A stretch of DNA of 32,000 nt from Cupriavidus necator (GTDB taxonomy: Bacteria; Pseudomonadota; Gammaproteobacteria; Burkholderiales; Burkholderiaceae): contig NZ_CP066019.1 of the NCBI RefSeq assembly GCF_016127575.1, positions 1 to 32,000 of the forward strand. Reading direction: 5' to 3'. The translations under genes were made by a program, and so were the position numbers. Position 1 is the first letter of the stretch; every line of letters begins with the position of its first letter. The notes under the pieces were generated by a model that worked only from the letters and a program-made list of their open reading frames with translations, did no database searches and was not told the DNA's origin. Below are positions 3,299-21,120 of this stretch, in pieces.

Positions 3299-3322
3299 CG
3301 CTGCGCCGGGCGCGCTGGCGCA

Positions 3323-3712
3323 TCAGGGCCGGCGCCGCTCCATTGCCACCATCGACGGCGTAAAGCCGAGCTGGCCGAAGAATGCGGCTTCGGAGGAACG
3401 CGCCGCGCGCAGCATCCAGGTGATGTCGGGGTCGTTGCCCACGATGTGCCGCACCAGGGCGCGGCCGATGCCGCGCCGGCGGTGGCTGGGCGCGACGGCA
3501 ACCATCGACAGGAAGCCGTCGCAGACGTCGTCGCACAGTGCGCGGGCAAAGCCGACGATCTCGCCGTGCTCCACCGCCACGACCACCCGTTGGGAGTTGG
3601 CCACCAGCCGTGCGAATTTCTCCGGGCCGCCCACCCGGTGGGCCCAGCCGTTGGCGATCAGTAGTTGTCTGGCTGCCTCGATGTCGTCAGGCAACAGGTT
3701 ACGGATTTCCAT
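3323..3712 (-). CDS. GNAT-family N-acetyltransferase
   Basis: 129 aa from MEIRNLL. Acetyl-CoA motif A RRRGIGRALV plus a C-terminal FFGQLGF. Start set at ATG 3712 (GGGAGAG upstream) within track ORF 3323-3790. Confidence 0.8.
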   Translation of the reverse strand: MEIRNLLPDDIEAARQLLIANGWAHRVGGPEKFARLVANSQRVVVAVEHGEIVGFARALCDDVCDGFLSMVAVAPSHRRRGIGRALVRHIVGNDPDITWMLRAARSSEAAFFGQLGFTPSMVAMERRRP

Positions 3713-3740
3713 CGGCGGCTCTCCCAGTAAAGCGTGTACG

Positions 3741-3804
3741 GCCCCTCGCCGCCCCCTGCCACGAGGGGCGCCGCGAGTCGAGAACGGCACGGGAACCCGT
3801 GCCG
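3741..3804. repeat. Two GC-rich inverted repeats in the GNAT/amn divergent intergenic region
   Basis: GCCCCTCG (3741-3748) pairs with CGAGGGGC (3762-3769). CGGCACGGG (3785-3793) pairs with CCCGTGCCG (3796-3804). Function unknown. Confidence 0.5.
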
Positions 3805-3899
3805 CGCAATTGGCGGAGTGTAGCGAGCGGGCGCGGGCGCGTCAATTTGGCTTCCGGCGGGGTCGGGTGCTGCTCACGCCGGCGCGCCGGCGCGGTATC

Positions 3900-5425: not shown

Positions 5426-5740
5426 TCAGTGGCTGATCATCCAGGGCCGCCCCCCGGGGGCCTTGGCCGCGTCCGTGCGCCCGGCCAGCCGGACCGGGCC
5501 GCAGCAGCCACACCCGGCGCCATGCGCCGACGATGACCTGGGCTCGGCCGCGCTGCGCTCATTGACCGCATGCGCCGCGCGCGCCGACCTCGCCATGCTG
5601 GCCAGCGCCGGTGCGGCCACCAGCGCGCGCGCTGCCAGCGCGCCGCATTGCGGGCAGGCCGCGGCTTCGTCGCGCCGCGACATTGGCCGCATCACCGCGA
5701 AATCGCCACAATCTTCACACCGATAGTCGTAGGTGGGCAT
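5426..5740 (-). CDS. fmdB: FmdB-family zinc-ribbon putative regulatory protein
   Basis: MPTYDYRCEDCG...CPQCG is the canonical FmdB CxxC-N-CxxC ribbon. ATG at 5740 has GGAG upstream. It lies 40 nt downstream of the formamidase gene. Confidence 0.8.
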   Translation of the reverse strand: MPTYDYRCEDCGDFAVMRPMSRRDEAAACPQCGALAARALVAAPALASMARSARAAHAVNERSAAEPRSSSAHGAGCGCCGPVRLAGRTDAAKAPGGRPWMISH

Positions 5741-5780: not shown

Positions 5781-7013
5781 CTAGGCCAGGTCGGGGGAAA
5801 GGGGCAGGTCCACGCCGCCCTGGATCATCTTCACCGGCCCGCTGGCGTTGGGCCGGATATCGAAATCGAAGATCTGCGTCGGCAGCCACAGCGTGGCGCA
5901 GGCATTGGGAATATCCACCACGCCACTGATATGCCCCTGAACCGGCGCTGTGCCGAGGATCGAATAGGCCTGGGCCCGCGAGTAGCCGAACCTGCTCAGG
6001 TATTCGATCGCGTTCAGGCATGCCTGCCGGTAGGCCACGTGCACATCCAGGTAATGTTGCTTGCCTGACTCATCGACGGAGATCCCTTCGAAGATCAGGT
6101 AGTCGTTGTAGCTCGGCGTGATCGGGCTGGGCTTGAAGATCGGATTGCGGATGCCGTACTTGGCCATGCCGCCCTTGATCAGCGACACGCGCATATGCAC
6201 CCAGCCGGCCATTTCGATGGCGCCGCAGAACGTGATCTCGCCATCGCCCTGCGAGAAATGCAGGTCGCCCACGGACAGGCCCGCGCCGTCCACATAGACG
6301 GGGAAGTAGACCTTGGCACCGCGTGACAGGTCCTTGATGTCGCAGTTGCCGCCATGCTCGCGCGGCGGCACCGTGCGCGCGCCGGCCGCGGCAGCCTGGG
6401 CGCGCGCATCGCCTTGCAGCCTGCCCATGTGCGCGGTGGCGGCAAACGGCGGATTGGCCAGGGGGGGCACGCGCCCGGGATCGGTGGCGATGAAATCCAT
6501 CTCGCGTTTGTTCCACGTCTCCAGCATGGCCTGGTCCGGCAGGCAGCCGATCAGCCCCGGGTGGATCAGCCCGGCAAAGCTCACGCCGGGGATATGGCGC
6601 GACGAGGTGTAGAGCCCGTGGAAGTCCCAGATCGACTTCTGCGCCTGCGGAAAGTGGTCGGTCAGGAAGCCGCCGCCGTTCTGCTTCGAAAAGAAGCCGT
6701 TGAAGCCCCACTGGCTTTCCGGCCTGGCGCCGATGTCCAGCAGATCCACCACCAGCAGGTCGCCGGGTTCGGCGCCTTCCACGCCTACTGGACCGGACAG
6801 GAAATGGACGATCGACAAATCGATGTCGCGCACATCGTCGGCCGAATCGTTGTTCTTGATGAAGCCGCCGGTCCAGTCGTAGGTTTCGAGGATAAAGTCG
6901 TCGCCCGGCTTGACCCAGCAGGCCATCGGGATGTCCGGGTGCCAGCGGTTGTGGACGTTGGGGTTCTCGTACGGCGATTCGGCCAGATCGACCTTGATCA
7001 GGGTGTCCGTCAT
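5781..7013 (-). CDS. fmdA: Formamidase (acetamidase/formamidase family)
   Basis: 410 aa from MTDTLIKVDLAESPYENPNVHNRWHPDIP, closely resembling FmdA-type formamidases. ATG at 7013 is preceded by AGGAGG. The track ORF 5781-7187 is extended 5'. Confidence 0.9.
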   Translation of the reverse strand: MTDTLIKVDLAESPYENPNVHNRWHPDIPMACWVKPGDDFILETYDWTGGFIKNNDSADDVRDIDLSIVHFLSGPVGVEGAEPGDLLVVDLLDIGARPESQWGFNGFFSKQNGGGFLTDHFPQAQKSIWDFHGLYTSSRHIPGVSFAGLIHPGLIGCLPDQAMLETWNKREMDFIATDPGRVPPLANPPFAATAHMGRLQGDARAQAAAAGARTVPPREHGGNCDIKDLSRGAKVYFPVYVDGAGLSVGDLHFSQGDGEITFCGAIEMAGWVHMRVSLIKGGMAKYGIRNPIFKPSPITPSYNDYLIFEGISVDESGKQHYLDVHVAYRQACLNAIEYLSRFGYSRAQAYSILGTAPVQGHISGVVDIPNACATLWLPTQIFDFDIRPNASGPVKMIQGGVDLPLSPDLA

Positions 7014-7074: not shown

Positions 7075-7764
7075 TCAGACCGACAGCAGTTGCCGGATGT
7101 GGTCCACATCCGTGCTGTTGCGCTGCGTCTCGTGTACGAAGCGGCCGCCTTCGATGACCAGCAGCCGGTCTGCCACGTCCAGCGCAAAGCTCAGCACCTG
7201 CTCGGAAAACACGATCGTGATGTCGCGCGTGCGGCGGATCTCGTCCAGCGCGCGGGCGATGTCCTTGATGATCGACGGCTGGATGCCTTCGGTGGGCTCG
7301 TCGAGCAGCAGCACCTTGGGATCGGCCACCAGCGCCCGCGCGATCGCCAGCTGCTGCTGCTGGCCGCCGGACAGGTTGCCGCCCTTGCGCCGGCGCATGT
7401 CGAACAGCACCGGGAACATCGCGAAGATCTCCTCGGGGATGCGCCGGCGCTTTCCCTGCGCCATGCCGGTGAGGATGTTTTCCTCGACGCTCAGGTGCGA
7501 GAAGATCATGCGCCCCTGCGGCACATAGCCCAGGCCCGCGCGCACGCGGCGATAGCTCTCGTCGCGGGCGACATCCCTGCCATCGATGTAGACCTGGCCC
7601 GAGCGCACCGGCAGCATGCCGATCATCGCCTTGAACAGCGTGGTCTTGCCCATGCCGTTGCGGCCCATGATGGCCACCGTTTCGCCCTGCGCGGCGGCAA
7701 ACGAAACGCCGTGCAGTGCCTCGCTCTGGCCATAGTTCACGACCACGTTGTCGACTGTGAGCAT
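7075..7764 (-). CDS. urtE: UrtE-like ABC transporter ATP-binding subunit (urea/short-chain amide uptake)
   Basis: Walker A GRNGMGKTT, signature LSGGQQQ, Walker B LLLLDEP. 229 aa from MLTVDNVVVNYG (ATG 7764, GGAG upstream). The track start at 7800 is a TTG. Confidence 0.85.
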   Translation of the reverse strand: MLTVDNVVVNYGQSEALHGVSFAAAQGETVAIMGRNGMGKTTLFKAMIGMLPVRSGQVYIDGRDVARDESYRRVRAGLGYVPQGRMIFSHLSVEENILTGMAQGKRRRIPEEIFAMFPVLFDMRRRKGGNLSGGQQQQLAIARALVADPKVLLLDEPTEGIQPSIIKDIARALDEIRRTRDITIVFSEQVLSFALDVADRLLVIEGGRFVHETQRNSTDVDHIRQLLSV

Positions 7765-7796
7765 GTGAGATTCTCCGTCGGTAGCAGGTGGCCGCG

Positions 7797-8540
7797 TCAA
7801 TGGCCCAGGTAGACGTCGATCACGCGCGGGTCGTTCTGCACCTGGGTCATCGAACCCTCGGCCAGGATCTTTCCCTGGTGCATCACGGTGACCTTGTCGG
7901 CGATCTGCTTGACGAAGTCCATGTCGTGCTCGATGACGATCACGGCGCGGCCCTTGCTGACGCGTTTGAGCAGTTCGGCGGTCTGTTCGCGCTCGCGCAC
8001 GCTCATGCCGGCAATCGGCTCGTCAAGCATCAGCAACCTGGGCTCTTGCATCAGCAGCATGCCGATCTCCAGCCACTGCTTCTGGCCATGCGACAGTTGC
8101 GCGGCCTCGCGCTCCAGCGCATCGGCCAGGCCAATCTCCGCGGCCACCTCGGCCACGCGCTGGCGGACCTCGACGGTGGCGCGAAAAGCCAGGGCGCCCA
8201 GCACGCCGCGTCCGCGCGGGAACGACACCGCCAGGTTCTGGAACACACTCAGGTTCTCGTAGATCGATGGCGTCTGGAACTTGCGGCCTACACCGGCGCG
8301 TACGATCTGGTACTCGGGCAGGCCCGTCAGCTCGCGGTTGGCAAACTTGATGCTGCCGCCGCTGGCGCGGGTCTTGCCGCACACCAGGTCCAGCAGCGTG
8401 GTCTTGCCGGCACCGTTCGGGCCGATGATCACGCGCAGCTCGTTGCGGTCGACATAGAGCGTGAGGTTGTCGATGGCCTTGAAGCCATCGAACGAGACCG
8501 TCAGATCTTCCACTGCCAGCATGAAGTCGGTATTGCTCAT
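7797..8540 (-). CDS. urtD: UrtD-like ABC transporter ATP-binding subunit
   Basis: Walker A GPNGAGKTT, signature LSHGQKQ, Walker B LLMLDEP. N-terminus LAVEDLTVSFDGFKAIDNL is typical of UrtD/LivG. Confidence 0.85.
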   Translation of the reverse strand: MSNTDFMLAVEDLTVSFDGFKAIDNLTLYVDRNELRVIIGPNGAGKTTLLDLVCGKTRASGGSIKFANRELTGLPEYQIVRAGVGRKFQTPSIYENLSVFQNLAVSFPRGRGVLGALAFRATVEVRQRVAEVAAEIGLADALEREAAQLSHGQKQWLEIGMLLMQEPRLLMLDEPIAGMSVREREQTAELLKRVSKGRAVIVIEHDMDFVKQIADKVTVMHQGKILAEGSMTQVQNDPRVIDVYLGH

Positions 8541-8557
8541 GGTGTCTGCCTCGCGGG

Positions 8558-9694
8558 TCAGGCCGTCGTGGCCGGGATGCGCTCGGCCGGCGCGGGCGGA
8601 TCGTCGGCACGCCGGCGCGCCAGGTACTTGCGGTAGAGGCCGGCCAGCCCGTCAGGGAAGGCCACCACCACGCCGATGAACAGCGCCGCCATCAGGAACA
8701 GCCAGAGATCCGGGAAACTCTCGGAGAAATAGGTCTTGCCGGCATTGACCAGCAAGGTGCCCCAGACCGCGCCCACCAGGCTCATGCGCCCGCCCACGGC
8801 CGCGAAGATCACCATTTCGATCGACGGCACGATGCCGACGAACGATGGCGACATGAAGCCGACCTGCAGCGTGAACATGGCGCCGCCGATGGCGGAAAGC
8901 GCGGCGGCCAGGCAGAACACGAACACCTTGAACATCGCCACGTCGTAGCCGGAGAAGCGCACGCGATCCTCTTTGTCGCGCATGGCCAGCAGCAGCACGC
9001 CAAGCTTGCTGCGCTGGATCCAGCGGCACAGGGCGACGGCGCCGAACAGCAGAGCCACGTTGACGAAGTAGAGATTGAGCCTGGCGCTGTCCGTGCGGAT
9101 GTCCCAGCCGAGCATCGTCTTGAGGTCGGTAATGCCATTGACGCCGCCGGTATAGCCTTGCTGGCCGATGATCAGCACCGACAGGATCAGCGCCACCGCC
9201 TGGGTGATGATCGCGAAGTAGACCCCGCTGACGCGACGCCGGAACATGGCGAAGCTGACTACGAAGGCCAGCAGCACCGGGATCGCGACCACGCCGGCCA
9301 TCGCGAACGGCAGGTGCCGGAACGGCTCCCACCACCACGGCAGCGCGCTCAGCTGGTTCCAGTCCATGAAGTCGGGAATGCCCGGCGTGGACTGGATCGC
9401 CGTGCTCCTGGGGTCGGATGCTTCGAGCTTCAGGAACATGGCCATGGCGTAGCCGCCGAGGCCGAAGAACACGCCTTGCCCGAGGCTCAGCACGCCGCCG
9501 TAGCCCCACAGCATGACCAGGCCCACGGCCACGAAGGCGTAGCTGAGATACTTGCCGACCAGGTTCAGGCGGAACACGTCCAGCGCCAGCGGCATGGCCA
9601 CCAGCAGCACCAGCGCAAGCAGTGCATAGCCGGCCCATTCGCCGCCGGCGCGCAGCCGCTGCAGCAGGGGCAGGATGGATTTCGAAGGGCACAT
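8558..9694 (-). CDS. urtC: UrtC-like ABC transporter permease
   Basis: Multi-TM LivM-type permease, 378 aa from ATG 9694 (AGGAG upstream). The track start at 9712 is a TTG. Confidence 0.85.
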   Translation of the reverse strand: MCPSKSILPLLQRLRAGGEWAGYALLALVLLVAMPLALDVFRLNLVGKYLSYAFVAVGLVMLWGYGGVLSLGQGVFFGLGGYAMAMFLKLEASDPRSTAIQSTPGIPDFMDWNQLSALPWWWEPFRHLPFAMAGVVAIPVLLAFVVSFAMFRRRVSGVYFAIITQAVALILSVLIIGQQGYTGGVNGITDLKTMLGWDIRTDSARLNLYFVNVALLFGAVALCRWIQRSKLGVLLLAMRDKEDRVRFSGYDVAMFKVFVFCLAAALSAIGGAMFTLQVGFMSPSFVGIVPSIEMVIFAAVGGRMSLVGAVWGTLLVNAGKTYFSESFPDLWLFLMAALFIGVVVAFPDGLAGLYRKYLARRRADDPPAPAERIPATTA

Positions 9695-9716
9695 CGTCGG
9701 GCTCCTTGGCAATGGT

Positions 9717-10631
9717 TCAGCGACGCACCGCCGGGGCGAACAGGCCTTGCGGGCGGATCATCAGGATCGTTACGATCAGCAGCAGCGTCAGCACGCGTGC
9801 CATTGACCCCGTCATGAAGAACTCCGTGATCGACTGCGTCTGCGCGATGCCGAAGGCCGACGCCACCGTGCCGGCGAGGCTGGCTGCGCCGCCGAACGTG
9901 ACCACGAGGAAGGCGTCGACGAGGTAGAGCGAGCCGCTGGTCGGTCCCGTGGAGCCGATCGTCGTGAAGGCCGCGCCAGCCACGCCGGCGATGCCGCAGC
10001 CGATGGCAAACGTCAGCCGGTCGGTGCGGCGCGTGTTGATGCCGGCGGCGTTGGCCATGGCCCGGTTGGCGGTGGTGGCGCGCACGCGCAGCCCCCAGCG
10101 CGAGCGGTACAGCGCCAGCCAGACCAGCCCGGCCACGCACAGCGTCAGCGCCATCACGAACAGGCCGTTGATCGGGATATCGAGGCCGGGGGCAGGCGCC
10201 CACGAACCCATCAGCCAGTCGGGCAGCGTCGGGCTGACTTCCTTGGGGCCGAAGGTCGAACGGAATGCCTGCTGCATGCCGAGCGACAGTCCCCAGGTGG
10301 CCAGCAGCGTATCCAGCGGCCGCTTGTAGAGGTGCCGGATCAGCGCCCATTCGGCCAGCCAGCCGGCACTGAAGGCAATGGCAAACGCGGCGCAAATGGC
10401 CACGGGGAAGTAATGGGGCATCCACGCCGGCGCCAGGCGCTCGACCGTGGTGGATGCCAGGAAGATGGTGTAGGCGCCGATGGCCATGAACTCGCCATGG
10501 GCCATGTTGATGACACCCATCTGGCCGAAGATGATGGCCAGGCCCAGCGCCATCAGCAGCAGCACCGAGAACAGGCTCAGCCCGGCAAAGCCCTGCATCA
10601 GGGCAATGTTCAGCATGTCGGACAGATTCAT
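9717..10631 (-). CDS. urtB: UrtB-like ABC transporter permease
   Basis: LivH-type permease, 304 aa, containing INMAHGEFMAIGAY. Confidence 0.85.
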   Translation of the reverse strand: MNLSDMLNIALMQGFAGLSLFSVLLLMALGLAIIFGQMGVINMAHGEFMAIGAYTIFLASTTVERLAPAWMPHYFPVAICAAFAIAFSAGWLAEWALIRHLYKRPLDTLLATWGLSLGMQQAFRSTFGPKEVSPTLPDWLMGSWAPAPGLDIPINGLFVMALTLCVAGLVWLALYRSRWGLRVRATTANRAMANAAGINTRRTDRLTFAIGCGIAGVAGAAFTTIGSTGPTSGSLYLVDAFLVVTFGGAASLAGTVASAFGIAQTQSITEFFMTGSMARVLTLLLIVTILMIRPQGLFAPAVRR

Positions 10632-10695: not shown

Positions 10696-11985
10696 TTACT
10701 GGTAGCCCTTCGGGAACGGGTTGGGCGGAATCAGCTGCGGAGATTCGGCCACCACCTTGAACTGGCCGTCAAGCTGCGCCAGGCCCACCCGCGTCCTGCT
10801 CCACAGGTGATGGTTGGTGTCGACCTTGACGTAGCCTTCCGGCGCGGTTTTCAGCTCGATGCCGGGCGACGCCGCCACGACCTTGTCGATATCGAAGCTG
10901 CCGGCCTTCTCGACGGCGGCCTTCCACAGCCACGGGCCCAGGTACGCGGCCTGGGTGACGTCGCCGATCACGGCCTTGCCGCCGTATCTGGCCTTGAAGG
11001 CATCGACGAACTGCTTGTTGTTGGCGTTGTTCAGCGACTGGAAGTACTTCATGGCGGCATAGAAGCCGGCGATGTTCTCGCCGCCGATGCCGAGCACTTC
11101 GTCCTCCGTGACCGAGATGGTCAGCAGGAACTGCTTGTCGGCGGTGATGCCGGCAGCCTTCAACTGCTTGTAGAAGGCCACGTTGGAGCCGCCCACCACG
11201 ATCGCGTAGATGCAGTCCGGCCTGGCCACCTTGATCTTGTTGATCAGCGAGTTGAAGTTGGTATGCCCCAGCGGGTAGTATTCCTCGCCCACCACCTTCA
11301 GCTTCAGGAAGTTCTCGATATGCTTGCGCGCGATCTTGTTCGACGTGCGCGGCCAGATGTAATCGGAGCCGATCAGGAAGAAGCTTTTGGCGTTCTTCTG
11401 CTTCGCGGCCCAGTCCAGCCCCCAGATGATCTGCTGCGTGGCCTCCTGGCCCGTGTAGATCACGTTCTTGGATTGCTCAAGCCCCTCGTAGAACGTGGGG
11501 TAGTAGAGCAGGCCGTTCTCTTTCTCGAAGACCGGCAGCACCGCCTTGCGCGAGGCTGAAGTCCAGCAGCCGAACACGGCCGCGACGCGGTCATTGACGA
11601 GGAGCTTGCGCGATTTCTCGGCAAAGGTCGGCCAGTCGGAGGCGCCGTCCTCCTTGATCACCCGGACCTTGCGGCCCAGGATGCCGCCCGCCGCGTTGAT
11701 CTGGTCGATGGCAAGTTGTTCGGCCTGGATCGAGCCGGTTTCCGAAATTGCCATGGTGCCCGTGGCCGAGTGCAGCTGGCCGACGGTGACTTCGGTATCG
11801 GTCACGGCCAGCCTGGTGGTATTGACCGTGGCGGTGGGCAGGCTGGCGCCATGAGCCTGCGCCGCCATGCCGGCCAGCGGCAGCGCGGGCAGGGCGGCCA
11901 GTCCCTGCATCAGGCGACGGCGCGGCAGCGAGACCGCGCCGCCGTCGGGTGTGGAAGGGGAACCGCTACTGTCTTTGTCACGCAT
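10696..11985 (-). CDS. urtA: UrtA/FmdD-like periplasmic urea/short-chain amide binding protein
   Basis: Type I periplasmic binding fold (VGQLHSATGTMAISE..., FGCWTSASRKAVLPV...). Tat-like signal RRRLMQGLAALPALPLAGMAAQA. ATG at 11985 has AGGAG upstream; the track start at 12036 is a TTG. Confidence 0.85.
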   Translation of the reverse strand: MRDKDSSGSPSTPDGGAVSLPRRRLMQGLAALPALPLAGMAAQAHGASLPTATVNTTRLAVTDTEVTVGQLHSATGTMAISETGSIQAEQLAIDQINAAGGILGRKVRVIKEDGASDWPTFAEKSRKLLVNDRVAAVFGCWTSASRKAVLPVFEKENGLLYYPTFYEGLEQSKNVIYTGQEATQQIIWGLDWAAKQKNAKSFFLIGSDYIWPRTSNKIARKHIENFLKLKVVGEEYYPLGHTNFNSLINKIKVARPDCIYAIVVGGSNVAFYKQLKAAGITADKQFLLTISVTEDEVLGIGGENIAGFYAAMKYFQSLNNANNKQFVDAFKARYGGKAVIGDVTQAAYLGPWLWKAAVEKAGSFDIDKVVAASPGIELKTAPEGYVKVDTNHHLWSRTRVGLAQLDGQFKVVAESPQLIPPNPFPKGYQ

Positions 11986-12082: not shown

Positions 12083-12098
12083 TACGTCATTCAACGTA
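12083..12098. promoter_or_regulatory. Candidate operator: palindrome TACGT-N6-ACGTA, nested in the 8-bp inverted repeat CGCCACAC (12066-12073) / GTGTGGCG (12110-12117)
   Basis: Read directly from the sequence. It is the only AT-richer palindrome in the 230-bp divergent region between urtA and the kinase gene. Confidence 0.3.
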
Positions 12099-12152: not shown

Positions 12153-12168
12153 CGGCATGGCTCTTGCG
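12153..12168 (+). promoter_or_regulatory. Sigma-54-like -24/-12 element CGGCATGGCTCTTGCG
   Basis: GG (12154-12155), N10, GC (12166-12167) with GGCA and TTGC sub-motifs. It lies 48 nt upstream of the kinase ATG. Match is by eye only. Confidence 0.25.
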
Positions 12169-12215: not shown

Positions 12216-15200
12216 ATGTCGAGCGCCAGCCAGCCAGTCCAGCGCATCAGCAAGATCCGGCGCGACTACAACCGCTGGGTGGCCGACGAGACCCTTGAGG
12301 ACTACGCCCTGCGCTTTGCACCAAAGTCGTTCCGAAAATGGAGCGCCTTCCGCGTGGCCAATACCGCTTTTGGTGCAGTTGCTTTCCTCGCGCTAGAGGC
12401 CATCGGCGCCGCCATCACGCTGAGCTACGGCTTTACCAACGCGATGTGGGCCATCGGCGCGGCAAGCCTGGTGATTTTCCTGACCGGCCTGCCGATTTCC
12501 TACTACGCGGCCCGCCACGGACTCGACATAGACTTGCTGGCGCGCGGTGCCGGCTTCGGCTACCTGGGTTCGACGATCACTTCGCTGATCTATGCGAGCT
12601 TTACCTTCATCTTCTTCGCGCTCGAGGCCGCCATCATGGCGCAGGCCTTCGAGCTGCTGTTCGGCCTGCCACGGCCTGTCGGCTACCTGTTGTCGGCCAT
12701 TGTCGTCATCCCGCTGGTCACCCATGGCGTGACGCTGCTGTCGCGCATCCAGCTGTGGACGCAGCCGGTGTGGCTGGCACTGCTGGTGCTGCCCTACGCA
12801 CTGATCCTCTGGCGCGAGCCGCACCGCTATGCGGAATTCCTGTCCCTGAACGGCCGGCTGGCCGATGGCGATGGATTCTCGTGGCAGGCATTCGGGGCCG
12901 CGGCCACCGTGGCGGCTGCGCTGATCGCCCAGATCGGCGAGCAGGTGGACTTCCTGCGCTTCATGCCGCCGCTGACGCAGCGCAACCGCGTGCGCTGGTG
13001 GAGCGCGCTGATCGCGGCCGGCCCGGGCTGGATCGTGCCGGGAGCAGCGAAGATGGCAGGGGGTGCGTTCCTCGCCTTTGTGGTGCTGCAGTCGGAACTG
13101 CCGATTGCCCATGCGCTGGAGCCCACTCAGATGTACCTGGCTGGCTTTGCACACGGACTCGGCGGGAGCTGGCCGGGATGGGTCGCGGTGGTGCTGACGG
13201 GACTGTTTGTCCTCATCTCGCAGACCAAGATCAATATCACCAATGCCTATGCGGGCTCGCTGGCGTGGTCGAACGTGTTCGCGCGGCTCACGCACAGTCA
13301 CCCGGGCCGTGTGGTGTGGCTGGCGTTCAATGTGCTGATCGCCGTAATGCTGATGGTGATGGGCGTGTTCGAGGCCATGGAGCAGGTACTGGCGCTTTAT
13401 GCCCACCTGGCCGTTGCGTGGGTCGGCGCGATCTGTGGCGACCTCGTCATCAGCAAGCCGCTCGGGCTTTCTCCCAAGGACATCGAGTTCCGGCGCGCCT
13501 ACCTGTTCGATATCAATCCGGCCGGCTTCGGCGCGATGATGCTGGCCTCGGCGTTGTCGATGCTGGTCCACCTGGGGGTGTTTGGCGACACACTGCGACC
13601 GGCGTCGGTTGGTGTGGGACTTCTGCTGGCGATCGTGTTGCCACCGTTGATCGCCATCGCCACGCACAGCCGCTATTTCGTTGCGCGCACGCCGGTCGAT
13701 TTTGGCCGGCGCCACGCCGTGATCCGTTGCGCGATCTGCCGCAATCCGTTCGAGAAGGAGGACGTGGCAGCCTGCCCGGCCTATCGCGGCCCGATCTGCT
13801 CGCTCTGCTGCACGCTCGACGCGCGCTGCGGCGACCGGTGTAAACCGGGCGCCAGCGCACAGGAACAGATCGCCACTGCGCTCACGCGCGTGCTGCCGGC
13901 CGGCACGCCACCAGTCATGGCCCGCCGGATCGGCAAGTTCGGCCTGATGCTGGCGGGGATGGTGTTTGCCTTCGGCACCTTGCTGTGGCTGCTCTATACG
14001 CAGGAGCAACTGTCCGGCCCGGTGGTGCTGGCTGCCGCGCCCCGTGCCAGCCTGTTCCTGAAGATCGGCGCCGGCCTGATGCTGTTTGCTGCCGTGGCCG
14101 CGTGGTGGCTGGTGCTGGCCAATGAGAGCCGGGCGGTGGCGCAGGAAGAGTCGGAGCGCCAGAACCAGTTGCTGCAGAAGGAAATCGACGCCCACCGCCG
14201 TACCGATGCGCTGCTGCAAAGCGCCAAGGAAGTCGCCGAGCAGGCCAACCTGGCCAAGAGCCGCTTCATCACCGGCATGAGCCATGAGATGCGCGCGGGC
14301 CTCAATTCGATCCTTGGCTACTCGCAGTTGCTGCTGCGCACGCCGGCGCTGCCCGCCGCATGCCGCGAGGACGTGCGGACCATCGGCCGCGCCGGCGAGC
14401 ACCTGTCGAGCCTTGTCGACGGCCTGCTGGAGCTGTCGCGCATCGAGGCGGGCAAGCTGCGGCTGGAACAGGATGCGGTGGCGCTGGAAGACCTGCTGGA
14501 CGAACTCGTCCGCATGTTCCGGCCACTGGCAGCGGTGCGCGGGCTGGCGTTCCACTATCGCGTGACCGGCAAGCTGCCGGCGCACGTGCATGGCGACGCC
14601 AAGCGCTTGCGCCAGATCATCATCAACCTTGTCACCAATGCCATCAAATTTACGGAGCACGGCGACGTGTCGCTGACCGTGCGCCACCAGCGCGAACTGG
14701 CAATGATCACGGTCAGCGATACGGGTCCTGGCATTGCCGCGGAAGACCAGGCGCGCATCTTCGATCCGTTTGAACGCGCCACGCCGCATGACGATCGCGA
14801 AGGCATCGGCCTGGGCCTGGCCATTGTGCGCCTGCTGGCAGACCTGATGGGTGGAGACATCCGCGTGCGCAGCGCACCGGGCCAAGGCAGCGAGTTCTCC
14901 GTGCGGCTCTATCTCCCGACCGTGGCCGCGGCGGTGACGTGCCCGCAGCGGGCGCCCGCGCCGCCAATGCCGGCGGGAGCGCGCGTGCTGATCGTCGACG
15001 ACCGCAGGGCCCATCGGGCGGTGCTGCGCGGCTTCCTGGCGCCGCACGGGCTGGCCGTGCATGAGGCGGGGGATGGCGCCGGCGTGCTCCCGGCGCTGTG
15101 CCAGTGGCGTCCGCACCTGGTGCTGCTCGACCTGAACCTGCCCGATGCATCGGGTTGGGACCTGTGCCGCCAGATCCGCGCCGAAGCCAATGCGCCGCAA

Positions 15201-15551
15201 GTGGTGATCGTCTCCGCCAACGCGCACGAAAACACGGAAGAAGCGCGCGCGCTGCACGGCTATCTGGGATTCGTCAGCAAGCCGGTGCGTGAGCGCGAAC
15301 TGGTCGAGATGGTCCGACGCGCGCTGACGCAGCCGCAGCCTGCGCTCACCCCGGCGCCGGACCTGTTGCGTGAGCTGCTGCAACTGGGCGCCACCGGCCG
15401 GCTGCGCGCGCTGGAGGCCCAGCTTTCAGAACTGGCGGAAGGCGGCGGCGCCGTGGCCACGTGGGCACTGCAGATGCTGGCGCTCGCGCGGACCGATGGC
15501 ACTGCCCTGACCGCATCACTTGGCGAGGCGCTCCATGCATCCCGAACCTGA
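12216..15551 (+). CDS. Hybrid sensor histidine kinase: NCS1/CodB-like 12-TM permease domain + Cys-rich insert + 2 TM + HisKA + HATPase_c + receiver
   Basis: 1111 aa from ATG 12216, where GC3 bias begins. CodB-like motifs: GLDIDLLARGAGFGYLGS, VDFLRFMPP, KINITNAYAGSLAWSN. H-box SHEMR (His690, nt 14283-14285). N/G boxes NLVTNAIKF, DTGPGI, GIGLGL. Receiver LVLLDLNLPD (Asp972, nt 15129-15131) and VSKP. Confidence 0.85.
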   Translation: MSSASQPVQRISKIRRDYNRWVADETLEDYALRFAPKSFRKWSAFRVANTAFGAVAFLALEAIGAAITLSYGFTNAMWAIGAASLVIFLTGLPISYYAARHGLDIDLLARGAGFGYLGSTITSLIYASFTFIFFALEAAIMAQAFELLFGLPRPVGYLLSAIVVIPLVTHGVTLLSRIQLWTQPVWLALLVLPYALILWREPHRYAEFLSLNGRLADGDGFSWQAFGAAATVAAALIAQIGEQVDFLRFMPPLTQRNRVRWWSALIAAGPGWIVPGAAKMAGGAFLAFVVLQSELPIAHALEPTQMYLAGFAHGLGGSWPGWVAVVLTGLFVLISQTKINITNAYAGSLAWSNVFARLTHSHPGRVVWLAFNVLIAVMLMVMGVFEAMEQVLALYAHLAVAWVGAICGDLVISKPLGLSPKDIEFRRAYLFDINPAGFGAMMLASALSMLVHLGVFGDTLRPASVGVGLLLAIVLPPLIAIATHSRYFVARTPVDFGRRHAVIRCAICRNPFEKEDVAACPAYRGPICSLCCTLDARCGDRCKPGASAQEQIATALTRVLPAGTPPVMARRIGKFGLMLAGMVFAFGTLLWLLYTQEQLSGPVVLAAAPRASLFLKIGAGLMLFAAVAAWWLVLANESRAVAQEESERQNQLLQKEIDAHRRTDALLQSAKEVAEQANLAKSRFITGMSHEMRAGLNSILGYSQLLLRTPALPAACREDVRTIGRAGEHLSSLVDGLLELSRIEAGKLRLEQDAVALEDLLDELVRMFRPLAAVRGLAFHYRVTGKLPAHVHGDAKRLRQIIINLVTNAIKFTEHGDVSLTVRHQRELAMITVSDTGPGIAAEDQARIFDPFERATPHDDREGIGLGLAIVRLLADLMGGDIRVRSAPGQGSEFSVRLYLPTVAAAVTCPQRAPAPPMPAGARVLIVDDRRAHRAVLRGFLAPHGLAVHEAGDGAGVLPALCQWRPHLVLLDLNLPDASGWDLCRQIRAEANAPQVVIVSANAHENTEEARALHGYLGFVSKPVRERELVEMVRRALTQPQPALTPAPDLLRELLQLGATGRLRALEAQLSELAEGGGAVATWALQMLALARTDGTALTASLGEALHASRT

Positions 15552-16428
15552 CACCTTTCGCCCGTTGCCGACGATCGAGACCCGCGTACTGGTGGTCGAC
15601 GACGATGCCGACGCGTGCGGCTTCCTGACGCGCGCGCTGGGTGGCGAAGCCATGCTGGTCCACACCGCCGCGAACGGCAACGCGGCACTGGATGCGCTGA
15701 CGTCCTTCGCGCCGGATGCGGTGCTGCTGGACGTGGACATGCCGGGCATGGACGGCTTTGCCGCCTGCACGGCGCTGCTGGACCGCCACGCGGACCTGCC
15801 GGTGATCTTCATGACCGGACTTGGCGATACCGGTCATATCGTGCGCGGTTTCGAAGTCGGCGCATGCGACTACGTGACCAAACCGGTGGCGATTGCCGAG
15901 GTGGTGGCGCGCGTGCGGTCTCATGCGGGCAAGGCACGGCTGGCGCGCAGCGCACGGGAGGCCGTATTCGGCAGCACGGTGCCGATGCTCGCGGCCGGCA
16001 TCGACGGCCGGCTCCTGTGGATAAACGGCAGCGCGTCAGCCTTGCTGCAGGCCCAGGGATGGCCGGTAGCGATTGCCGGCGCGGTACTGCCTCCCGCGCT
16101 GCGCGACGCGGTGTTCCGCCTCTGCAGCGAAGCGGAAACTGGCGCTGATAGTCTTCACCTGCGCCGGTTGACAGGCGAGGCGGGCGACGTGGTCGTGGTG
16201 GAACTGTCGTGCAGCGGTCTGGCCCCGGCCGGCCCGGCCCTGACACTGCGCGAGGCCGAGGTGATGGCCTGGGTGGCGCGCGGCAAGACCAATCGCGATA
16301 TCGCCGACATCCTCGGCATGAGCCCGCGCACGGTGAACAAGCACCTGGAACACATCTACGAGAAGCTCGGCGTGGAAACGCGAACGGCGGCAGTCGCCGC
16401 CACCCGGCGCAACTTGGGGACGGCGTGA
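15535..16428 (+). CDS. Response regulator: REC + PAS-like middle region + LuxR/FixJ-type HTH
   Basis: 297 aa from ATG 15535 (GAGG upstream), overlapping the kinase stop codon by 17 nt. REC motifs VLVVDDD, AVLLDVDMPGMDG, DYVTKP. C-terminal LTLREAEVMAWVARGKTNRDIADILGMSPRTVNKHLEHIYEKLGV. The track start at 15520 is a TTG. Confidence 0.85.
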   Translation: MHPEPDTFRPLPTIETRVLVVDDDADACGFLTRALGGEAMLVHTAANGNAALDALTSFAPDAVLLDVDMPGMDGFAACTALLDRHADLPVIFMTGLGDTGHIVRGFEVGACDYVTKPVAIAEVVARVRSHAGKARLARSAREAVFGSTVPMLAAGIDGRLLWINGSASALLQAQGWPVAIAGAVLPPALRDAVFRLCSEAETGADSLHLRRLTGEAGDVVVVELSCSGLAPAGPALTLREAEVMAWVARGKTNRDIADILGMSPRTVNKHLEHIYEKLGVETRTAAVAATRRNLGTA

Positions 16429-16443
16429 CGTGCCGTGCGCCAA

Positions 16444-16478
16444 GGCAAGAAGGGCCGGCGTTGCCGGCCCTTCTTGCC
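16444..16478. terminator. Bidirectional hairpin terminator between the convergent regulator and ompW genes
   Basis: Perfect 16-bp stem GGCAAGAAGGGCCGGC / GCCGGCCCTTCTTGCC with a 3-nt loop. Confidence 0.8.
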
Positions 16479-16491
16479 AGTCGGATCCCGA

Positions 16492-17136
16492 TCAGAAGCG
16501 GTAACCCACCCCCATGCTGAACAGCCACGGATCCAGGTTCACCTTGGATACCTTGACATCCCCCGCCTTCACATCGCTCGACAGCCAGATCTTCTTGATG
16601 TCGGCGTTGAGAAACCAGTTTTTGGTCAGCTTGTAGTCCATGCCGATCTGCAGCGCGGGACCGACGCTCCAGCTATCGAGCTGCAGCGAGTTGTTGGCGA
16701 TGTCCGCGCCCCAGATGCGGGTGAAGTTCAGGCCCGCGCCGATATACGGGCGGAAGGTGCCGTTGGGGATGAAGTGGTACTGCACCAGCAGCGTCGGCGG
16801 CAGATGCTTGAAGGTGCCGACCTTGTTGCCGTCCAGGTAGACGTCCTGCTTCTGCGGCACTGTCAGCACCAGTTCGGCGGCGATGTTCGGCGTGAAGAAG
16901 TAGGTGACGTCGAACTCGGGAATCCACTTGTTGTTGACCGTGATGCGGTCCGACGGGCCGACGCCGCCGACGGGGTCGGAGCTGTTGGCCATGTCGAGAT
17001 AGGTGCCGCGCAGGCGCACCATCCAGTTGCCCTGGGCATCGTCCGCGGCGGCGGCAGGGGTGGCGAAGGCGCCGAGCATGGCGCAGGCGGCGATGGCGGA
17101 ACAGGTGACCCGGGTGCGGAGAGAGAGTGTTTTCAT
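16492..17136 (-). CDS. ompW: OmpW-family outer-membrane protein
   Basis: 214 aa with a signal peptide. OmpW-like beta-strand pattern (RPYIGAGLNF, DSWSVGPALQIGMDY) and a C-terminal ...GVGYRF. Confidence 0.9.
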   Translation of the reverse strand: MKTLSLRTRVTCSAIAACAMLGAFATPAAAADDAQGNWMVRLRGTYLDMANSSDPVGGVGPSDRITVNNKWIPEFDVTYFFTPNIAAELVLTVPQKQDVYLDGNKVGTFKHLPPTLLVQYHFIPNGTFRPYIGAGLNFTRIWGADIANNSLQLDSWSVGPALQIGMDYKLTKNWFLNADIKKIWLSSDVKAGDVKVSKVNLDPWLFSMGVGYRF

Positions 17137-17425
17137 GAGGTTCTGCTTGGTCTGGTATCAAATCCGGACCCAGTTTGGCCGAGCAGGCCGGGTTGGGCTT
17201 TGACCCAAGACAAGTAGAAGGGAACGTGGGCTGGCTGCGTCGCGCAGGCGCTACAGCGAGGAAGGCGCCGTGGTGTGCCAGCTGCGCCGACGCTTCTAAA
17301 CACATGCGGAATTATTCGTGGCGCGGTGCGATGCTGCCCCTTACGCTGTGCGAAAGATCCGAGCACGCATGCAGCGTGTGCGGATCGGCACCGAGCATGT
17401 CGTGGGCGTCCGCAAGGGCGTCTTT

Positions 17426-17465
17426 CCGGGTGTGCCCCGTGGGGGCGGGGCACACCGGTTTTCTT
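17426..17465. terminator. Strong hairpin just 3' of leuA; its U-tract is on the plus strand
   Basis: 10-bp stem GGTGTGCCCC (17429-17438) / GGGGCACACC (17447-17456) plus CC/GG extension. It is followed by TTTTCTT on the plus strand; on the minus (leuA) strand it is followed by GGAAAGA. Confidence 0.55.
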
Positions 17466-17481
17466 GCGGCGGCTTGCGGTG

Positions 17482-19179
17482 TCAGGCGTCGGCGGCCTCG
17501 GCGGACTGCGGGGCCTGCGCCGCGCCAAAGCCGGCCTGCAGGTGCCGGTTCACGCCCGAGATCACCGCGCGCAGCGATGCCGTGACCAGGTTGGCGTCGA
17601 TGCCGGCGCCGAACCCTGTCGGCGAATCGCCCACGCGCACTTCCACGTAGCAGGCCGCGCGTGCATCCGCGCCGGCGCTCATCGCATGCTCGTGGTAATC
17701 CATCACGCGTACCGGCAAGTCCAGCGCATTGACGAAGGCATCGATGGGCCCGTTGCCGGTGCCGCGCACGCTGCACGGCTTGCCGTCGCGCACCATCTGC
17801 ACTTCGATCTCCGTGGCGCCGCCGCTGTCAGATACCAGCTGGTGCGATACATAGCGCAGCGGTGTCTGCTGCGCGAGGTACTCGCGCTGGAACAAACCAT
17901 GAAGATCATCGGCACTCGCCTCGAGCCCGGTGTCGTCGGTCATGGCCTGCACCGCGCGGCTGAATTCGATCTGCAGGCGGCGCGGCATGTAGATGCCATG
18001 CACCTGCTCCAGCAGGTAGGCCATGCCGCCCTTGCCGGACTGGCTGTTGACGCGGATCACCGCGTCATAGCTGCGGCCCAGGTCGGCCGGGTCGATCGGC
18101 AGGTAGGGCACTTCCCAGATGCCGTCCGGCTGCTGCTGTGCAAAGCCCTTGCGGATCGCATCCTGGTGCGAGCCCGAGAACGCGGTGAATACCAGGTCGC
18201 CCACATACGGGTGGCGCGGATGCACCGGCAGCTGGTTGCAGTGCTCAACGCACTGGCGCACTGCGTCGATATCGGAGAAGTCCAGCCCGGGTGCCACGCC
18301 CTGCGTATAGAGGTTGAGCGCCAGCGTCACCAGGTCGACATTGCCGGTGCGCTCGCCGTTGCCGAACAGGCAGCCTTCGACGCGGTCCGCGCCCGCCATC
18401 AGCGCCAGCTCCGCGGCGGCCACCGCGGTGCCGCGGTCGTTGTGCGGGTGCACTGACAGCGCGATGTGTTCGCGCCGTGCCAGGCGGCGGTGCATCCATT
18501 CGACCTGGTCGGCGAACACGTTGGGCGTGCTGCATTCGACCGTGGTCGGCAGGTTCAGGATCATTGGCCGGTCCGGGCCGGCCTGCCAGGCGGCAGAGAC
18601 GGCGTCGCTGACTTCCAGCGAGAAGTCGAGCTCGGCCAGGCTGAAAGTCTCGGGCGAATATTCATAGGCCCATGCCGTGCCAGGCATGGCATCGGTCAGC
18701 GACCTGATCAGGCGCGTGCCCGAGACCGCGACCTCCTTGATCTCTTCACGCGAGGCATTGAAGACGATGCGCCGCCAGGCTGGCGCGATCGGGTTGTACA
18801 GGTGCACCGTGGCCCGCGCTGCGCCGCGCACGGACTCGACGGTGCGGCGGATCAGGTCTTCGCGCGATTGCGTCAGCACCACGATGTTGACGTCTTCGGG
18901 GATGCGCTGCTCCTCGATCAGCATGCGCACGAAGTCGAAATCGGTCTGCGAGGCGGCGGGGAACGCCACTTCGATTTCCTTCAGGCCGATTTTCACCAGC
19001 TGCTCGAAGAAGCGCAGCTTGCGCGCCGGGTTCATCGGCTCGATCAGGGCCTGGTTGCCGTCGCGCAGGTCGGTGCTCATCCAGCGCGGTGCGCGCGTGA
19101 TGGTGCGGGCGGGCCAGGTGCGGTCAGGGATGTCGACGGTGGCGGCGGGGTGGTACTTGGTGGCGGGATTGCTGAGCAT
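17482..19179 (-). CDS. leuA: 2-isopropylmalate synthase, long (LeuA type 2) form
   Basis: 565 aa. [29 protein letters not shown] and a C-terminal regulatory domain. ATG at 19179 is preceded by GGAAGGAG. Confidence 0.95.
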
Positions 19180-19261
19180 ACGGGGTCTCCTTCCTCGCTA
19201 AGGGAAGTAAAGGAAAAACGGAAGAAACGGTGGCGAAAGGCTGCCGAACTGCCACGGGGCA

Positions 19262-19408
19262 CTAGGCCCGGCAACCGGTCGATAGGCTTAGCAGTAGCGA
19301 GGAAGCGCGCAGGGCGCGGCCCGATGCCAGGGCAGCCAGCACGCGCGCGCGGGCAGCGATGCGGGACGCATCGGCAGCCTGGCTGAGTGTGCTGGTGTAA
19401 CGGTTCAT
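19262..19408 (-). promoter_or_regulatory. Candidate leuA leader ORF ending ...ASSLLLSLSTGCRA (Leu codons CTA CTG CTA - CTA)
   Basis: ATG 19408 to TAG 19262-19264 (48 codons). Four Leu in six codons near the stop, three of them the CTA codon that looks rare in the genes of this window. No clear SD. Confidence 0.3.
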
Positions 19409-19770: not shown

Positions 19771-21120
19771 ATGAGACTGAGAACGTGGGCATCCTGGCTG
19801 GCGGGCGCTGCCATGACCATGCTGCTGGCAGCGTGCGGTGGCGGCGGTGGTTCGAGCACGCCCGCCACGCCAAACGCAGGCGGTTCCACGCCGCTGACCT
19901 ATACGGTGAAGATGAGCGTGACCTCGGGCGAGGTCGGCGTCGGCCGCACGATCACCATCAGCGCGCTGGCAGTGGACAGCAACGGCATCGACGTCTCCGG
20001 CAACACCACCTTCAACTGGACCAGTACCGACAGCGGCATTGCCACCGTGGAGCCGAGTGCCACCACGCCGGGCAGCGCCGTGGTCAAGGGCATTGCAACC
20101 GGGACGACCACCGTCCAGGTGGTGGCGAGCGTCAAGGGCGCCGACAACACCACGGTGCAGCTGCCCGCGCAATCCGCCACCATCACCGTGGTGCCGGCCT
20201 CGGCGCTGAGCTACAGCCTGGCGATCCCGAACAGCAGCCTGTCGATGAGCGACGGGCAGGAGCTGCCGGTCAAGGTATCGCTGGTCGACAGCAACGGCGC
20301 CGATGTGTCCGCCAGCGTCAACAGCTGGGCATGGTCCAGCAGCGGCTCCGCGGTCCAGGTCACTGCCAGCCAGAACAGCGCCACGCTGAAGGCGAGCAAC
20401 AGCTCACCCACTGCCGTGGCCACGGCCAGTGTCTCGGTATCGGTGACAGCACCGGACGGGCATGCCATTGCCGGGCTGATCGCGGTGACAGTGCAGACGA
20501 ACGGCGCCGCCGCCTATCGCGTGGTGACGATTAAGGGCGGCCGCGAGGTGAATGCGCTGCAGGTCTTCAGCAACCGTCCGGAAACCTTCACCTCGCGTGT
20601 GCTGCGCCACGATGGCCAGGACGTGACCGCGGAGTTCGACGGCGCCTGGACCTACACGGCGACCTCGGCCACGCTGTCCGCATCGGACGCGGCGGGTACG
20701 CATGACGCCACGGTCAGCACCAGCCTGGCCAACGACAAGGGTCCGGTCCAGAGCAGCCTGACGGTGACGGCTGTCAGCACCAGGCTCGGCGAACGCCGCA
20801 GCGCCACGCTGACGGTGACCGAGAACCCGGTCTGGGCGCTGGTTGGCGACAACCAGGATCCGATGACGCTGCTGCTGATGCCACCGATGAGTATCCCGGT
20901 GACCGCGCGCATGAAGCACCTTGGCGACGATGCGCAGTACACCGCGTGCATCAACTGGGCGTGGACCAGCACCGGCCCGGTGGAGTTGTCGCCTGGCGTC
21001 GCGGATCATCAGAAGAACGTCACTGGCACAGCGCAGGGCGACTTCACTCTTACCGTGACCTGTAATGCCGTCGCCGACAATACGCCGCTGAAGCTGGTCT
21101 TCTACGGTACGGTCAAGTAA
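19771..21120 (+). CDS. Lipoprotein built from about four tandem bacterial Ig-like (Big_2-like) domains
   Basis: Lipobox LLAAC (Cys22) followed by GGGGGSS. Repeated roughly 95-aa units such as ...ALAVDSNGIDVSGNTTFNWTSTDSGIATV...VKGIATGTTTVQVVAS... Thr/Ser/Val-rich beta composition. It has its own terminator. Confidence 0.8.
   Translation: MRLRTWASWLAGAAMTMLLAACGGGGGSSTPATPNAGGSTPLTYTVKMSVTSGEVGVGRTITISALAVDSNGIDVSGNTTFNWTSTDSGIATVEPSATTPGSAVVKGIATGTTTVQVVASVKGADNTTVQLPAQSATITVVPASALSYSLAIPNSSLSMSDGQELPVKVSLVDSNGADVSASVNSWAWSSSGSAVQVTASQNSATLKASNSSPTAVATASVSVSVTAPDGHAIAGLIAVTVQTNGAAAYRVVTIKGGREVNALQVFSNRPETFTSRVLRHDGQDVTAEFDGAWTYTATSATLSASDAAGTHDATVSTSLANDKGPVQSSLTVTAVSTRLGERRSATLTVTENPVWALVGDNQDPMTLLLMPPMSIPVTARMKHLGDDAQYTACINWAWTSTGPVELSPGVADHQKNVTGTAQGDFTLTVTCNAVADNTPLKLVFYGTVK

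Follow-up and report, generated by a model that had tools for sequence, protein, structure and literature searches.

A hybrid histidine kinase of Cupriavidus necator with a diverged NCS1-like membrane domain, a candidate sensor of short amides or urea encoded opposite a formamidase and Urt-type uptake operon

To our knowledge, fusions of a transporter with a kinase are few, and only those of the SLC5 type (CbrA, CrbS) and of the Amt type have been studied. In CbrA and CrbS/MxtR, an SLC5/SSS transporter, a STAC domain and a histidine kinase are joined in one protein that acts on genes for nutrient use by way of a cognate regulator (PMC13022988, PMC5715377). Ks-Amt5 is an ammonium-sensing fusion of Amt with a histidine kinase (PMC5764959). 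The subject of the present analysis is a hybrid sensor histidine kinase of Cupriavidus necator, the N-terminal domain of which resembles the nucleobase permeases of the NCS1 family. Its gene (12216–15551, plus strand) lies in a stretch of 32,000 nucleotides (contig NZ_CP066019.1, positions 1–32,000), referred to below as the window, opposite genes for a formamidase and an uptake system of the urea type. As far as we know, what has been described of how most Proteobacteria adjust the uptake and hydrolysis of urea and short amides to the substrate is mainly general nitrogen control. The formamidase (fmd) cluster of Methylophilus methylotrophus was reportedly found, in papers of the 1990s, to be induced by short-chain amides and urea, and no sensor is known to us to have been described for it.

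Our reading of the locus, to which we assign a probability of roughly 0.6, is that a short amide or urea is the ligand of a diverged NCS1-like membrane module, which turns on the urt-fmdA-fmdB operon via a LuxR-type regulator. The genes were mapped by third-position GC analysis and Pfam, in a window with a G+C content of ~67%. The open reading frame (ORF) of the kinase extends from an ATG at 12216 to a stop codon at 15549–15551 and encodes 1111 amino acids, assigned from the ORF, its translation and Pfam. An identical protein (P0001) is already present in a public collection, and the closest named relative among the matches listed is from Cupriavidus campinensis, with 91% identity across the N-terminal 655 residues. 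The kinase gene is separated by an intergenic region of 230 bp from the divergent urt-like/fmdA/fmdB operon, encoded on the minus strand. The first gene of this operon (10696–11985) starts with an ATG at 11985, preceded by an AAGGAG ribosome site, and encodes a UrtA/FmdD-like periplasmic binding protein (Pfam Peripla_BP_5, E 5e-127). It is followed by two BPD_transp_2 permease genes and two ATP-binding cassette (ABC) ATPase genes (7075–10631, minus strand, by Pfam), which are urtB-, C-, D- and E-like, and by the formamidase/acetamidase gene fmdA (5781–7013, minus strand; Pfam FmdA_AmdA, E 2.4e-182). Encoded after fmdA is a small zinc-ribbon gene (5426–5740, minus strand), which we take to belong to the family named fmdB; its ORF opens with MPTYDYRCEDCG...CPQCG and contains a CxxC…CxxC pattern, and a homologue occupies the same place in 42 related loci. 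On the other side, the LuxR-type response regulator gene (15535–16428, plus strand; from sequence, translation and the Pfam REC and GerE matches) begins with an ATG at 15535 and overlaps the 3′ end of the kinase gene by 17 nucleotides. The context described in the original prediction, a divergent formamidase/Urt-like operon and a LuxR-type regulator joined to the kinase, is thus borne out by the Pfam map and the overlap.

The NCS1-like domain comprises residues ~40–485 (12333–13670, plus strand) and was delimited by AlphaFold2 (AF2), Foldseek, NCBIfam and hhalign; it has no Pfam match. Two AF2 models were built, one of residues 1–530, with a predicted local distance difference test score (pLDDT) of 72, and one of the full-length protein from 67 homologues, with a mean pLDDT of 90.5 and values of 90–98 in the membrane domain. 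The models exhibit a LeuT fold of 12 transmembrane (TM) helices spanning residues ~44–482. When the model of residues 1–530 was compared with the PDB by Foldseek, the first four ranks were occupied by Mhp1 in three conformations (E 1.8e-7 to 9.1e-7) and by CodB (E 3.9e-6), with a target-normalised TM-score of up to 0.70. Comparison of the full-length model is dominated by kinase matches, and only rank 50 informs on the permease domain; this first non-kinase match is again Mhp1 (E 5.6e-10, TM-score 0.72, 485 columns). Mhp1 and CodB are therefore the best transporter matches, and the 12 TM helices of the models agree with the roughly 12 TM segments of the original prediction. SSS, Nramp, LeuT, SGLT and APC carriers rank below NCS1 for the model of residues 1–530, and many of them, SSS, Nramp, LeuT and APC included, reach E values of 4e-5 to 1e-3, as would be expected if the domain were a separate family no nearer to NCS1 than to SSS, Nramp or APC carriers and shared with them a generic LeuT/APC resemblance. 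Such a family would also account for two other observations. The PF02133 match predicted over residues 30–480 is absent from the window protein at E ≤ 1 by hmmscan, and one NCS1 aromatic position and the Na2-site hydroxyls are not retained. We nonetheless regard a generic resemblance as improbable, since NCS1 structures were consistently first, in both Foldseek runs, and since a single permease model recurs in the sequence searches. That model, the cytosine permease model NF008241, was matched by seven out of 22 diverse members of the family, at best with an E value of 3.7e-9, and is alone among 18,950 NCBIfam models in recurring across the 22. In addition, PF02133 itself was reached by one family member out of 39 (E 0.0014), and the motif blocks of TM2–3, TM6 and TM8 align to CodB.

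Profile alignment leads to the same NCS1 relationship. A diverse alignment of the family was aligned by hhalign with E. coli CodB with an E value of 7e-5 and a probability of 63%, and with a relaxed alignment threshold the two are collinear over residues 26–486 of the kinase and 3–409 of CodB. The three CodB strings quoted in the original prediction are all present in E. coli CodB, and hhalign pairs them with the blocks named for the window protein. Some homologues already carry the label 'purine-cytosine permease-like' in the automatic annotation of IMG, so that the architecture has been noticed by software; a study of it was not found. We conclude that the N-terminal domain is a diverged NCS1 relative beyond the reach of the current Pfam model. 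The designation 'NCS1-type' thus holds for the fold and for distant homology, and fails for Pfam membership and for CodB-like site residues.

The roles of the CodB residues are taken from its published structure-based assignments (PMC9379551). They were transferred to the window protein in the hhalign register, the confidence of which is low over TM6 and TM8. The break glycine of TM1, G29, aligns with G53, and F33, which contacts cytosine, with F57. The substrate contact Q105 is aligned with T130, and N280, which makes a water-mediated substrate contact, with N340. The aromatic pair of TM3 and TM6 that sandwiches the nucleobase in CodB and NCS1 is not kept: the stacking aromatic W108 of TM3 corresponds to F133 (Leu in some paralogues), and the stacking aromatic F204 of TM6 to Ala or Ser at position 235. 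Similarly, the hydroxyls of the Na2 site in TM8 are not kept, T278 being aligned with K338, which is invariant, and T279 with I339. The changed stacking aromatic and Na2 threonines mark a diverged NCS1-like family rather than a CodB-type permease. Sodium coupling is not universal among NCS1 members, so the lost Na2 hydroxyls speak against a CodB- or Mhp1-like mechanism and not against homology. In some cation-independent LeuT-fold carriers a lysine at the position equivalent to K338 substitutes for sodium, and K338 possibly replaces the coupling sodium ion here as well.

Other residues lining the candidate pocket are strongly conserved. Glu137 in TM3, one turn past the W108 position, is invariant, and the TM6 break motif QIGEQ is nearly so. 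E137, K338, N340 and N343 are invariant even in the most distant members, kinase-less ones included, whereas E61, T130, Q239, E242 and Q243, which also line the candidate pocket, are invariant only within the closer relatives. Fused and unfused members conserve the pocket and helix-break motifs to the same degree, and the candidate pocket residues that were checked are identical in 80 of 80 loci (described below). Alignment position 285 alone separates the groups of genomic context, being Phe in the fmd type and Leu in the others. Ala or Ser at the F204 position fits a ligand much smaller than cytosine, and the pattern as a whole suggests that the pocket has been remodelled to accept a small polar compound of that kind.

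The membrane domain is followed by a Cys-rich, zinc-ribbon-like cytoplasmic insert (residues 500–545; 13713–13850, plus strand) with eight cysteines, at positions 505, 508, 520, 528, 531, 532, 538 and 542, all invariant or near-invariant across 67 diverse homologues. AF2 predicts short strands over residues 502–528 with a pLDDT of ~95, and the cysteine pattern suggests that the insert may bind metal. It leads into an extra TM hairpin (13926–14126, plus strand) composed, by hydropathy, of TM13 (~572–592) and TM14 (~612–637), corresponding to AF2 helices at 571–600 and from 604 onward, and connected by an outer loop of ~20 residues. The Cys-rich insert and the two additional TM helices of the original prediction are thus both present. 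In the full-length model a single unbroken helix, residues 604–708, passes from TM14 into the DHp helix that bears His690, and this helix would provide a direct mechanical route to the kinase. No Pfam family matched the linker, residues 494–678. A STAC identity was considered for the linker and insert and was rejected, as they have no Pfam match and consist of a Cys-rich domain and two TM helices instead.

The remainder of the protein is a hybrid histidine kinase of the HisKA class, with a DHp domain carrying the acceptor histidine, a GHKL ATPase domain and a receiver carrying the acceptor aspartate. The signalling helix and HisKA/DHp region (14127–14453, plus strand) combines the AF2 helix 604–708, the HisKA domain (residues 680–746, Pfam E 3.2e-14) and the H-box SHEMR at 689, within which His690 is encoded by the codon at 14283–14285. 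HATPase_c follows at residues 793–900 (14592–14915, plus strand; Pfam E 6.5e-30), and the Response_reg receiver at residues 924–1034 (14985–15317, plus strand; Pfam E 3.6e-22), with Asp972 (codon 15129–15131) in the motif LLDLNLP that begins at residue 970. All three domains, with His690 and Asp972, had been assigned to this one ORF beforehand, and a kinase-domain scan with Pfam together with the motifs recovers each of them. In the Foldseek comparison of the full-length model, the kinase core resembles the structures of ShkA, GacS, HK853 and RetS. The protein ends in a region of four AF2 helices (residues 1048–1110; 15357–15548, plus strand) devoid of an Hpt-type histidine motif. A Pfam search of the C-terminal 73 residues matched no family, and the tail therefore contains no recognisable Hpt domain. 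A true Hpt domain is present in 6 of 39 homologues, some of which have it at this same C-terminal end, and the four helices may represent a docking domain or an Hpt domain that has degenerated.

A link of the module to nitrogen compounds of the amide type is well supported, and genomic context is the strongest argument for it. One genome per species was scanned, yielding 80 loci from betaproteobacteria, gammaproteobacteria (Pseudomonas, Stutzerimonas) and alphaproteobacteria (Bradyrhizobium, Methylocystaceae). In 72 of these loci, fmdA/urt, urt or urease genes are found no more than 10 kb from the kinase–regulator pair. An upstream urtA-like gene in the arrangement of the window was found in 55 of the 80; the whole fmdB-fmdA-urtEDCBA operon is visible in 42 of the 55 (fmdA in 43), most of the others being cut by contig ends. 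Ten loci of the 80 contain a more distant urt operon, with 42–50% identity to that of the window and no fmdA, and seven contain the urease gene ureC. The remaining eight have none of fmdA, urt or urease within 10 kb, five of them being contigs under 7 kb. A homologous LuxR-type regulator follows the kinase in 73/80 loci, and the arrangement divergent from fmdA/urt is conserved in beta-, gamma- and alphaproteobacteria. In the Methylophilaceae loci (L058, L072 and L075) the kinase is found beside urt or urease genes, not fmdA. One metagenome-assembled genome of the Comamonadaceae (Jr-19feb18-39) contains two kinase paralogues (L049 and L077), one beside fmdA/urt and the other beside urease.

The association with both formamidase and urease may also be explained by a different signal, such as a shared product or state (ammonium, pH, nitrogen status) or the activity of the adjacent ABC transporter or of the associated binding protein. 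Formamidase and urease both release ammonia, and the candidate pocket residues do not vary between paralogues linked to formamidase, urt and urease, which are separated by position 285 only; the occurrence of two paralogues in one genome would be odd if their ligand were identical. We consider a signal of this kind very improbable. The outer loops are short and offer little surface for a binding protein, and the reported induction of the Methylophilus fmd genes by short-chain amides as well as urea is explicable by one broad-specificity pocket. Furthermore, homologues that lack outputs sit before amidase genes as substrate permeases do.

These kinase-less homologues are informative in their own right. 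Two of them, P0184 and P0186, are encoded immediately before amidase genes (PF01425); in the case of P0186 the two genes overlap, and the P0184 cluster also contains an FmdA_AmdA gene, a second amidase gene and a CN_hydrolase gene. The position directly before amidase genes suggests that the unfused form is a permease, and the kinase-less homologues beside amidases are likely amide permeases. A LysR regulator is encoded in the cluster with FmdA_AmdA and a divergent GntR regulator in the other. The kinase-less homologues placed in this way, in L083–L085 (gene 6001–7677 in L083) and in L089 (gene 1079–2755), have 558 amino acids and are composed of the membrane domain and the Cys-rich tail. Such proteins bear on the possibility that the fused kinase is a true transceptor, in which the domain still moves the amide or urea and the kinase reads transport cycling as proposed for CbrA, thereby adding transport to the claim of sensing. 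The unfused homologues share the same invariant pocket residues and stand in amidase operons in the usual position of a substrate permease, the complete 12-TM fold is retained at high predicted confidence, and the invariant Lys338 aligns with Thr278 of the CodB Na2 site. Against this, the adjacent operon encodes a high-affinity ABC system, and the mapping of Lys338 comes from a low-confidence stretch of the alignment. Retained transport appears rather unlikely to us, and the reading preferred here, ligand sensing by an NCS1-like module, is stated in a form that does not require it.

The family to which the module belongs is large. A first search scored more than 8000 clusters at 90% identity, and the N-terminal profile retrieved 2016 clusters (50% identity) at E ≤ 1e-3, of which 641 are at E ≤ 1e-30. 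Inspection covered the best 150 of the 2016 clusters, and the weaker end, where ordinary NCS1 permeases might appear, lies outside these. Among 39 diverse members the output domains are HisKA (24), receiver (17), PAS (about nine), Hpt (6), GGDEF (5), GAF (5) and EAL (4). Some members, of 546–576 residues, consist of the membrane domain and the Cys-rich tail only, and are complete genes with differing downstream genes. The membrane and Cys-rich unit, for which there is no Pfam model, thus resembles an input module that can be combined with various outputs and also occurs by itself. The presence of one module on many outputs, among the 39 members sampled, is typical of a dedicated sensor, and would fit a permease fold that has ceased to transport and acts purely as a ligand-binding membrane receptor, with uptake performed by the ABC system. 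The kinase gene indeed adjoins the genes of an ABC transporter that would take up the presumed ligand, and the sodium-site threonines of CodB are not retained. However, the output-less members beside amidases resemble working permeases, and the equal conservation of pocket and helix-break motifs in fused and unfused members speaks against a receptor function alone. We hold a purely receptor role to be doubtful.

The candidate partner of the kinase is the regulator encoded by the overlapping gene. It contains REC (Pfam E 2.6e-26) and GerE (E 2.2e-18) domains and belongs to the NarL/FixJ (LuxR-type) class. Between REC and the helix-turn-helix lies an extra middle region of ~100 residues (~135–230) with the PAS-like sequence …GIDGRLLWINGSASALL… and no Pfam match. 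Such a region is atypical of NarL/FixJ regulators and may be a second input.

The intergenic region contains the palindrome TACGTCATTCAACGTA (TACGTC-N4-GACGTA; 12083–12098), a candidate operator on the grounds of conservation and enrichment. Two further Cupriavidus species retain it, and nowhere else in the 32-kb window does the strict pattern TACG[TC]N6[AG]CGTA occur. Across 1.41 Mb of related loci the pattern has 75 matches, compared with ~5 expected, as estimated for uniform base composition. More than half of them (39 of 75) fall in the 460 bp that precede the kinase gene, spread over 35 of the 53 full loci, and about seven of 12 remaining matches are located at the presumed start of a urtA-like gene or a short distance upstream of it, even where urt is not divergent from the kinase. 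In a relaxed form (≤2 mismatches, spacer of 4–8) the palindrome is present in the corresponding region of 41 of the 42 full fmd-type loci, with two or three copies in Pseudomonas and the form TACGCAAGATCGCGTA in Bradyrhizobium. The palindrome is the putative binding site of the co-encoded LuxR-type regulator, judged by its sequence and position. An additional copy was observed between fmdA and the urtE-like gene in Pseudomonas oryzihabitans (L024:4676) and Stutzerimonas kirkiae (L027:4381), which suggests a second regulated promoter before fmdA.

A sigma-54-like −24/−12 element, CGGCATGGCTCTTGCG (GG-N10-GC; 12153–12168, plus strand), was read from the sequence ~50 bp before the kinase start. 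Two further Cupriavidus species have it in the form CGGCAC-N5-TTGCA, and elements resembling the sigma-54 type are found 34–118 bp before the kinase start in many loci, a frequency not controlled for chance. The candidate element suggests NtrC/RpoN control of the sensor pair, as a lead only. In Burkholderia cenocepacia, BCAM0639 and BCAM2039, both named as 'two-component response regulators', are listed in the NtrC regulon and depend strongly on NtrC (PMC5491218).

These elements can be assembled into the following mechanism. Formamide, another short-chain amide or urea would bind in a central pocket between TM1, TM3, TM6 and TM8. The rocking of the permease fold would be transmitted via TM12, the eight-Cys zinc-ribbon-like domain and the TM13–TM14 hairpin, the second helix of which, TM14, would relay the motion to the kinase by running into the His690 helix. 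The kinase would autophosphorylate on His690, and the phosphoryl group would be transferred, directly or through Asp972, to the REC–PAS-like–LuxR regulator. The phosphorylated regulator, positioned on the TACGTC-N4-GACGTA palindrome, would then activate the operon of urtABCDE-like genes, fmdA and fmdB, and the sigma-54-like promoter may tie the sensor pair to nitrogen limitation. The fold, the homology, the order of the domains and the conservation of gene neighbourhood and palindrome are observed. Which ligand is bound, in which direction the operon is regulated, how the phosphoryl group travels and whether transport is retained we infer from these features, and both the term 'transceptor' and the control of the operon are used here as hypotheses.

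Several results weigh against this mechanism. Pfam at E ≤ 1 gave no match in residues 1–650, PF02133 and SSF included, no permease model of NCBIfam matches the window protein, and searches of the PDB sequences with phmmer and with two family profiles (A1 and A4) retrieved neither Mhp1 nor CodB. The link to NCS1 comes from structure prediction and transitive homology, with an hhalign probability of only 63%, and the residue mapping is provisional because hhalign confidence is low over TM6 and TM8. Pfam found no Hpt domain in the kinase protein, a separate Hpt protein not having been searched for, and the phosphoryl group would thus travel either directly from His690 or via Asp972 and a separate Hpt protein. 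Since the candidate pocket residues are the same in formamidase-, urt- and urease-type loci, the ligand may be a common factor, for example the product ammonium. The ABC uptake system is already present, so that transport by the NCS1-like domain is not needed. Finally, a full-text literature search, the coverage of which excludes most subscription journals, returned no experimental work on any member of the family. The sole phmmer match in the PDB, an uncharacterised protein at E 0.2, was dismissed.

Further features of the window were noted around the locus. The UrtA/FmdD-like binding protein has the N-terminal sequence RRRLMQGL, which resembles a twin-arginine export signal. The small FmdB-like zinc-ribbon protein and the Cys-rich ribbon-like domain of the kinase are both encoded at the locus. 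After the regulator gene come OmpW and LeuA genes, both on the minus strand; they are conserved beside the kinase in none of the 80 loci and are therefore placed outside this system. The ORFs at 16435–17214, 17275–18453, 18466–19383 and 19771–21117 (all plus strand) were rejected as genes, as they have no Pfam match and third-position GC indicates wrong frames. On the far side of fmdB, an AMP nucleosidase-like gene (AMNp_N and PNP_UDP_1; ~3975–5387, plus strand) is nested in a longer mechanical ORF, 2841–5387, of which only the C-terminal ~470 residues look like real protein.

In the same literature, again with most subscription journals outside its coverage, we found no study of an NCS1–kinase fusion or of a two-component sensor for urea or amides, in agreement with the original prediction, to which no characterised fusion of this kind was known. 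One genome paper lists fmdA, urtABCDE, a hybrid kinase and a LuxR regulator side by side without comment (PMC13296017). The family supplies concrete sensor, regulator and operator candidates for urea and amide regulation, and an NCS1-like version with another coupling device would show if transporter motion can drive kinases generally. A model for its ~2000 clusters (50% identity), which Pfam does not cover, would improve annotation, and engineered strains that obtain their nitrogen from formamide could benefit from a switch responding to formamide or urea. A broader proposal, which we put forward tentatively, is that the large unnamed family consists of NCS1-derived modules with zinc-ribbon-like coupling that would be dedicated sensors of urea and short amides, and permeases where unfused, in Proteobacteria and other bacteria. 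These would feed two-component and cyclic di-GMP outputs and would carry a tethered lysine in place of sodium and an acidic pocket for H2N-C(=O)-X. If this broader proposal is true, the window kinase would be the first example of the family, a new transceptor class would be added, and the long-missing substrate-specific regulator of urt, urease and formamidase genes would be identified.

Comparison with the described systems shows which parts are shared. With CodB and Mhp1, its best structural matches, the window domain has in common the 12-TM LeuT fold and, in the case of CodB, the blocks GL(D/T)..LL(A/T)R..FG..GS, DF(L/V)RF and N..NA.YA..L.(W/F).N. It differs from both in the C-terminal eight-Cys domain, the signalling fusion and the invariant Glu137 in TM3, and the kinase is found in a context of amide and urea use, not of nucleobase use. 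The divergent operon of the window shares with the Methylophilus methylotrophus fmd cluster the formamidase and the same type of ABC uptake system. Ks-Amt5 likewise joins the fold of a nitrogen-compound transporter to a histidine kinase, but has an Amt/Rh fold, senses ammonium and uses another coupling domain. CbrA and CrbS resemble the window kinase in the placement of a LeuT-fold transporter-like domain N-terminal to a histidine kinase. In the window protein, however, this domain is NCS1-like and not SLC5, SSS structures ranking below NCS1 and no SSF Pfam match being present; the coupling consists of a Cys-rich domain and a TM hairpin in contrast to the four-helix bundle of STAC; and the regulator is of the LuxR type. 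Thus, relative to CbrA, CrbS and Ks-Amt5, the transporter family, the coupling device and the regulator class all differ.

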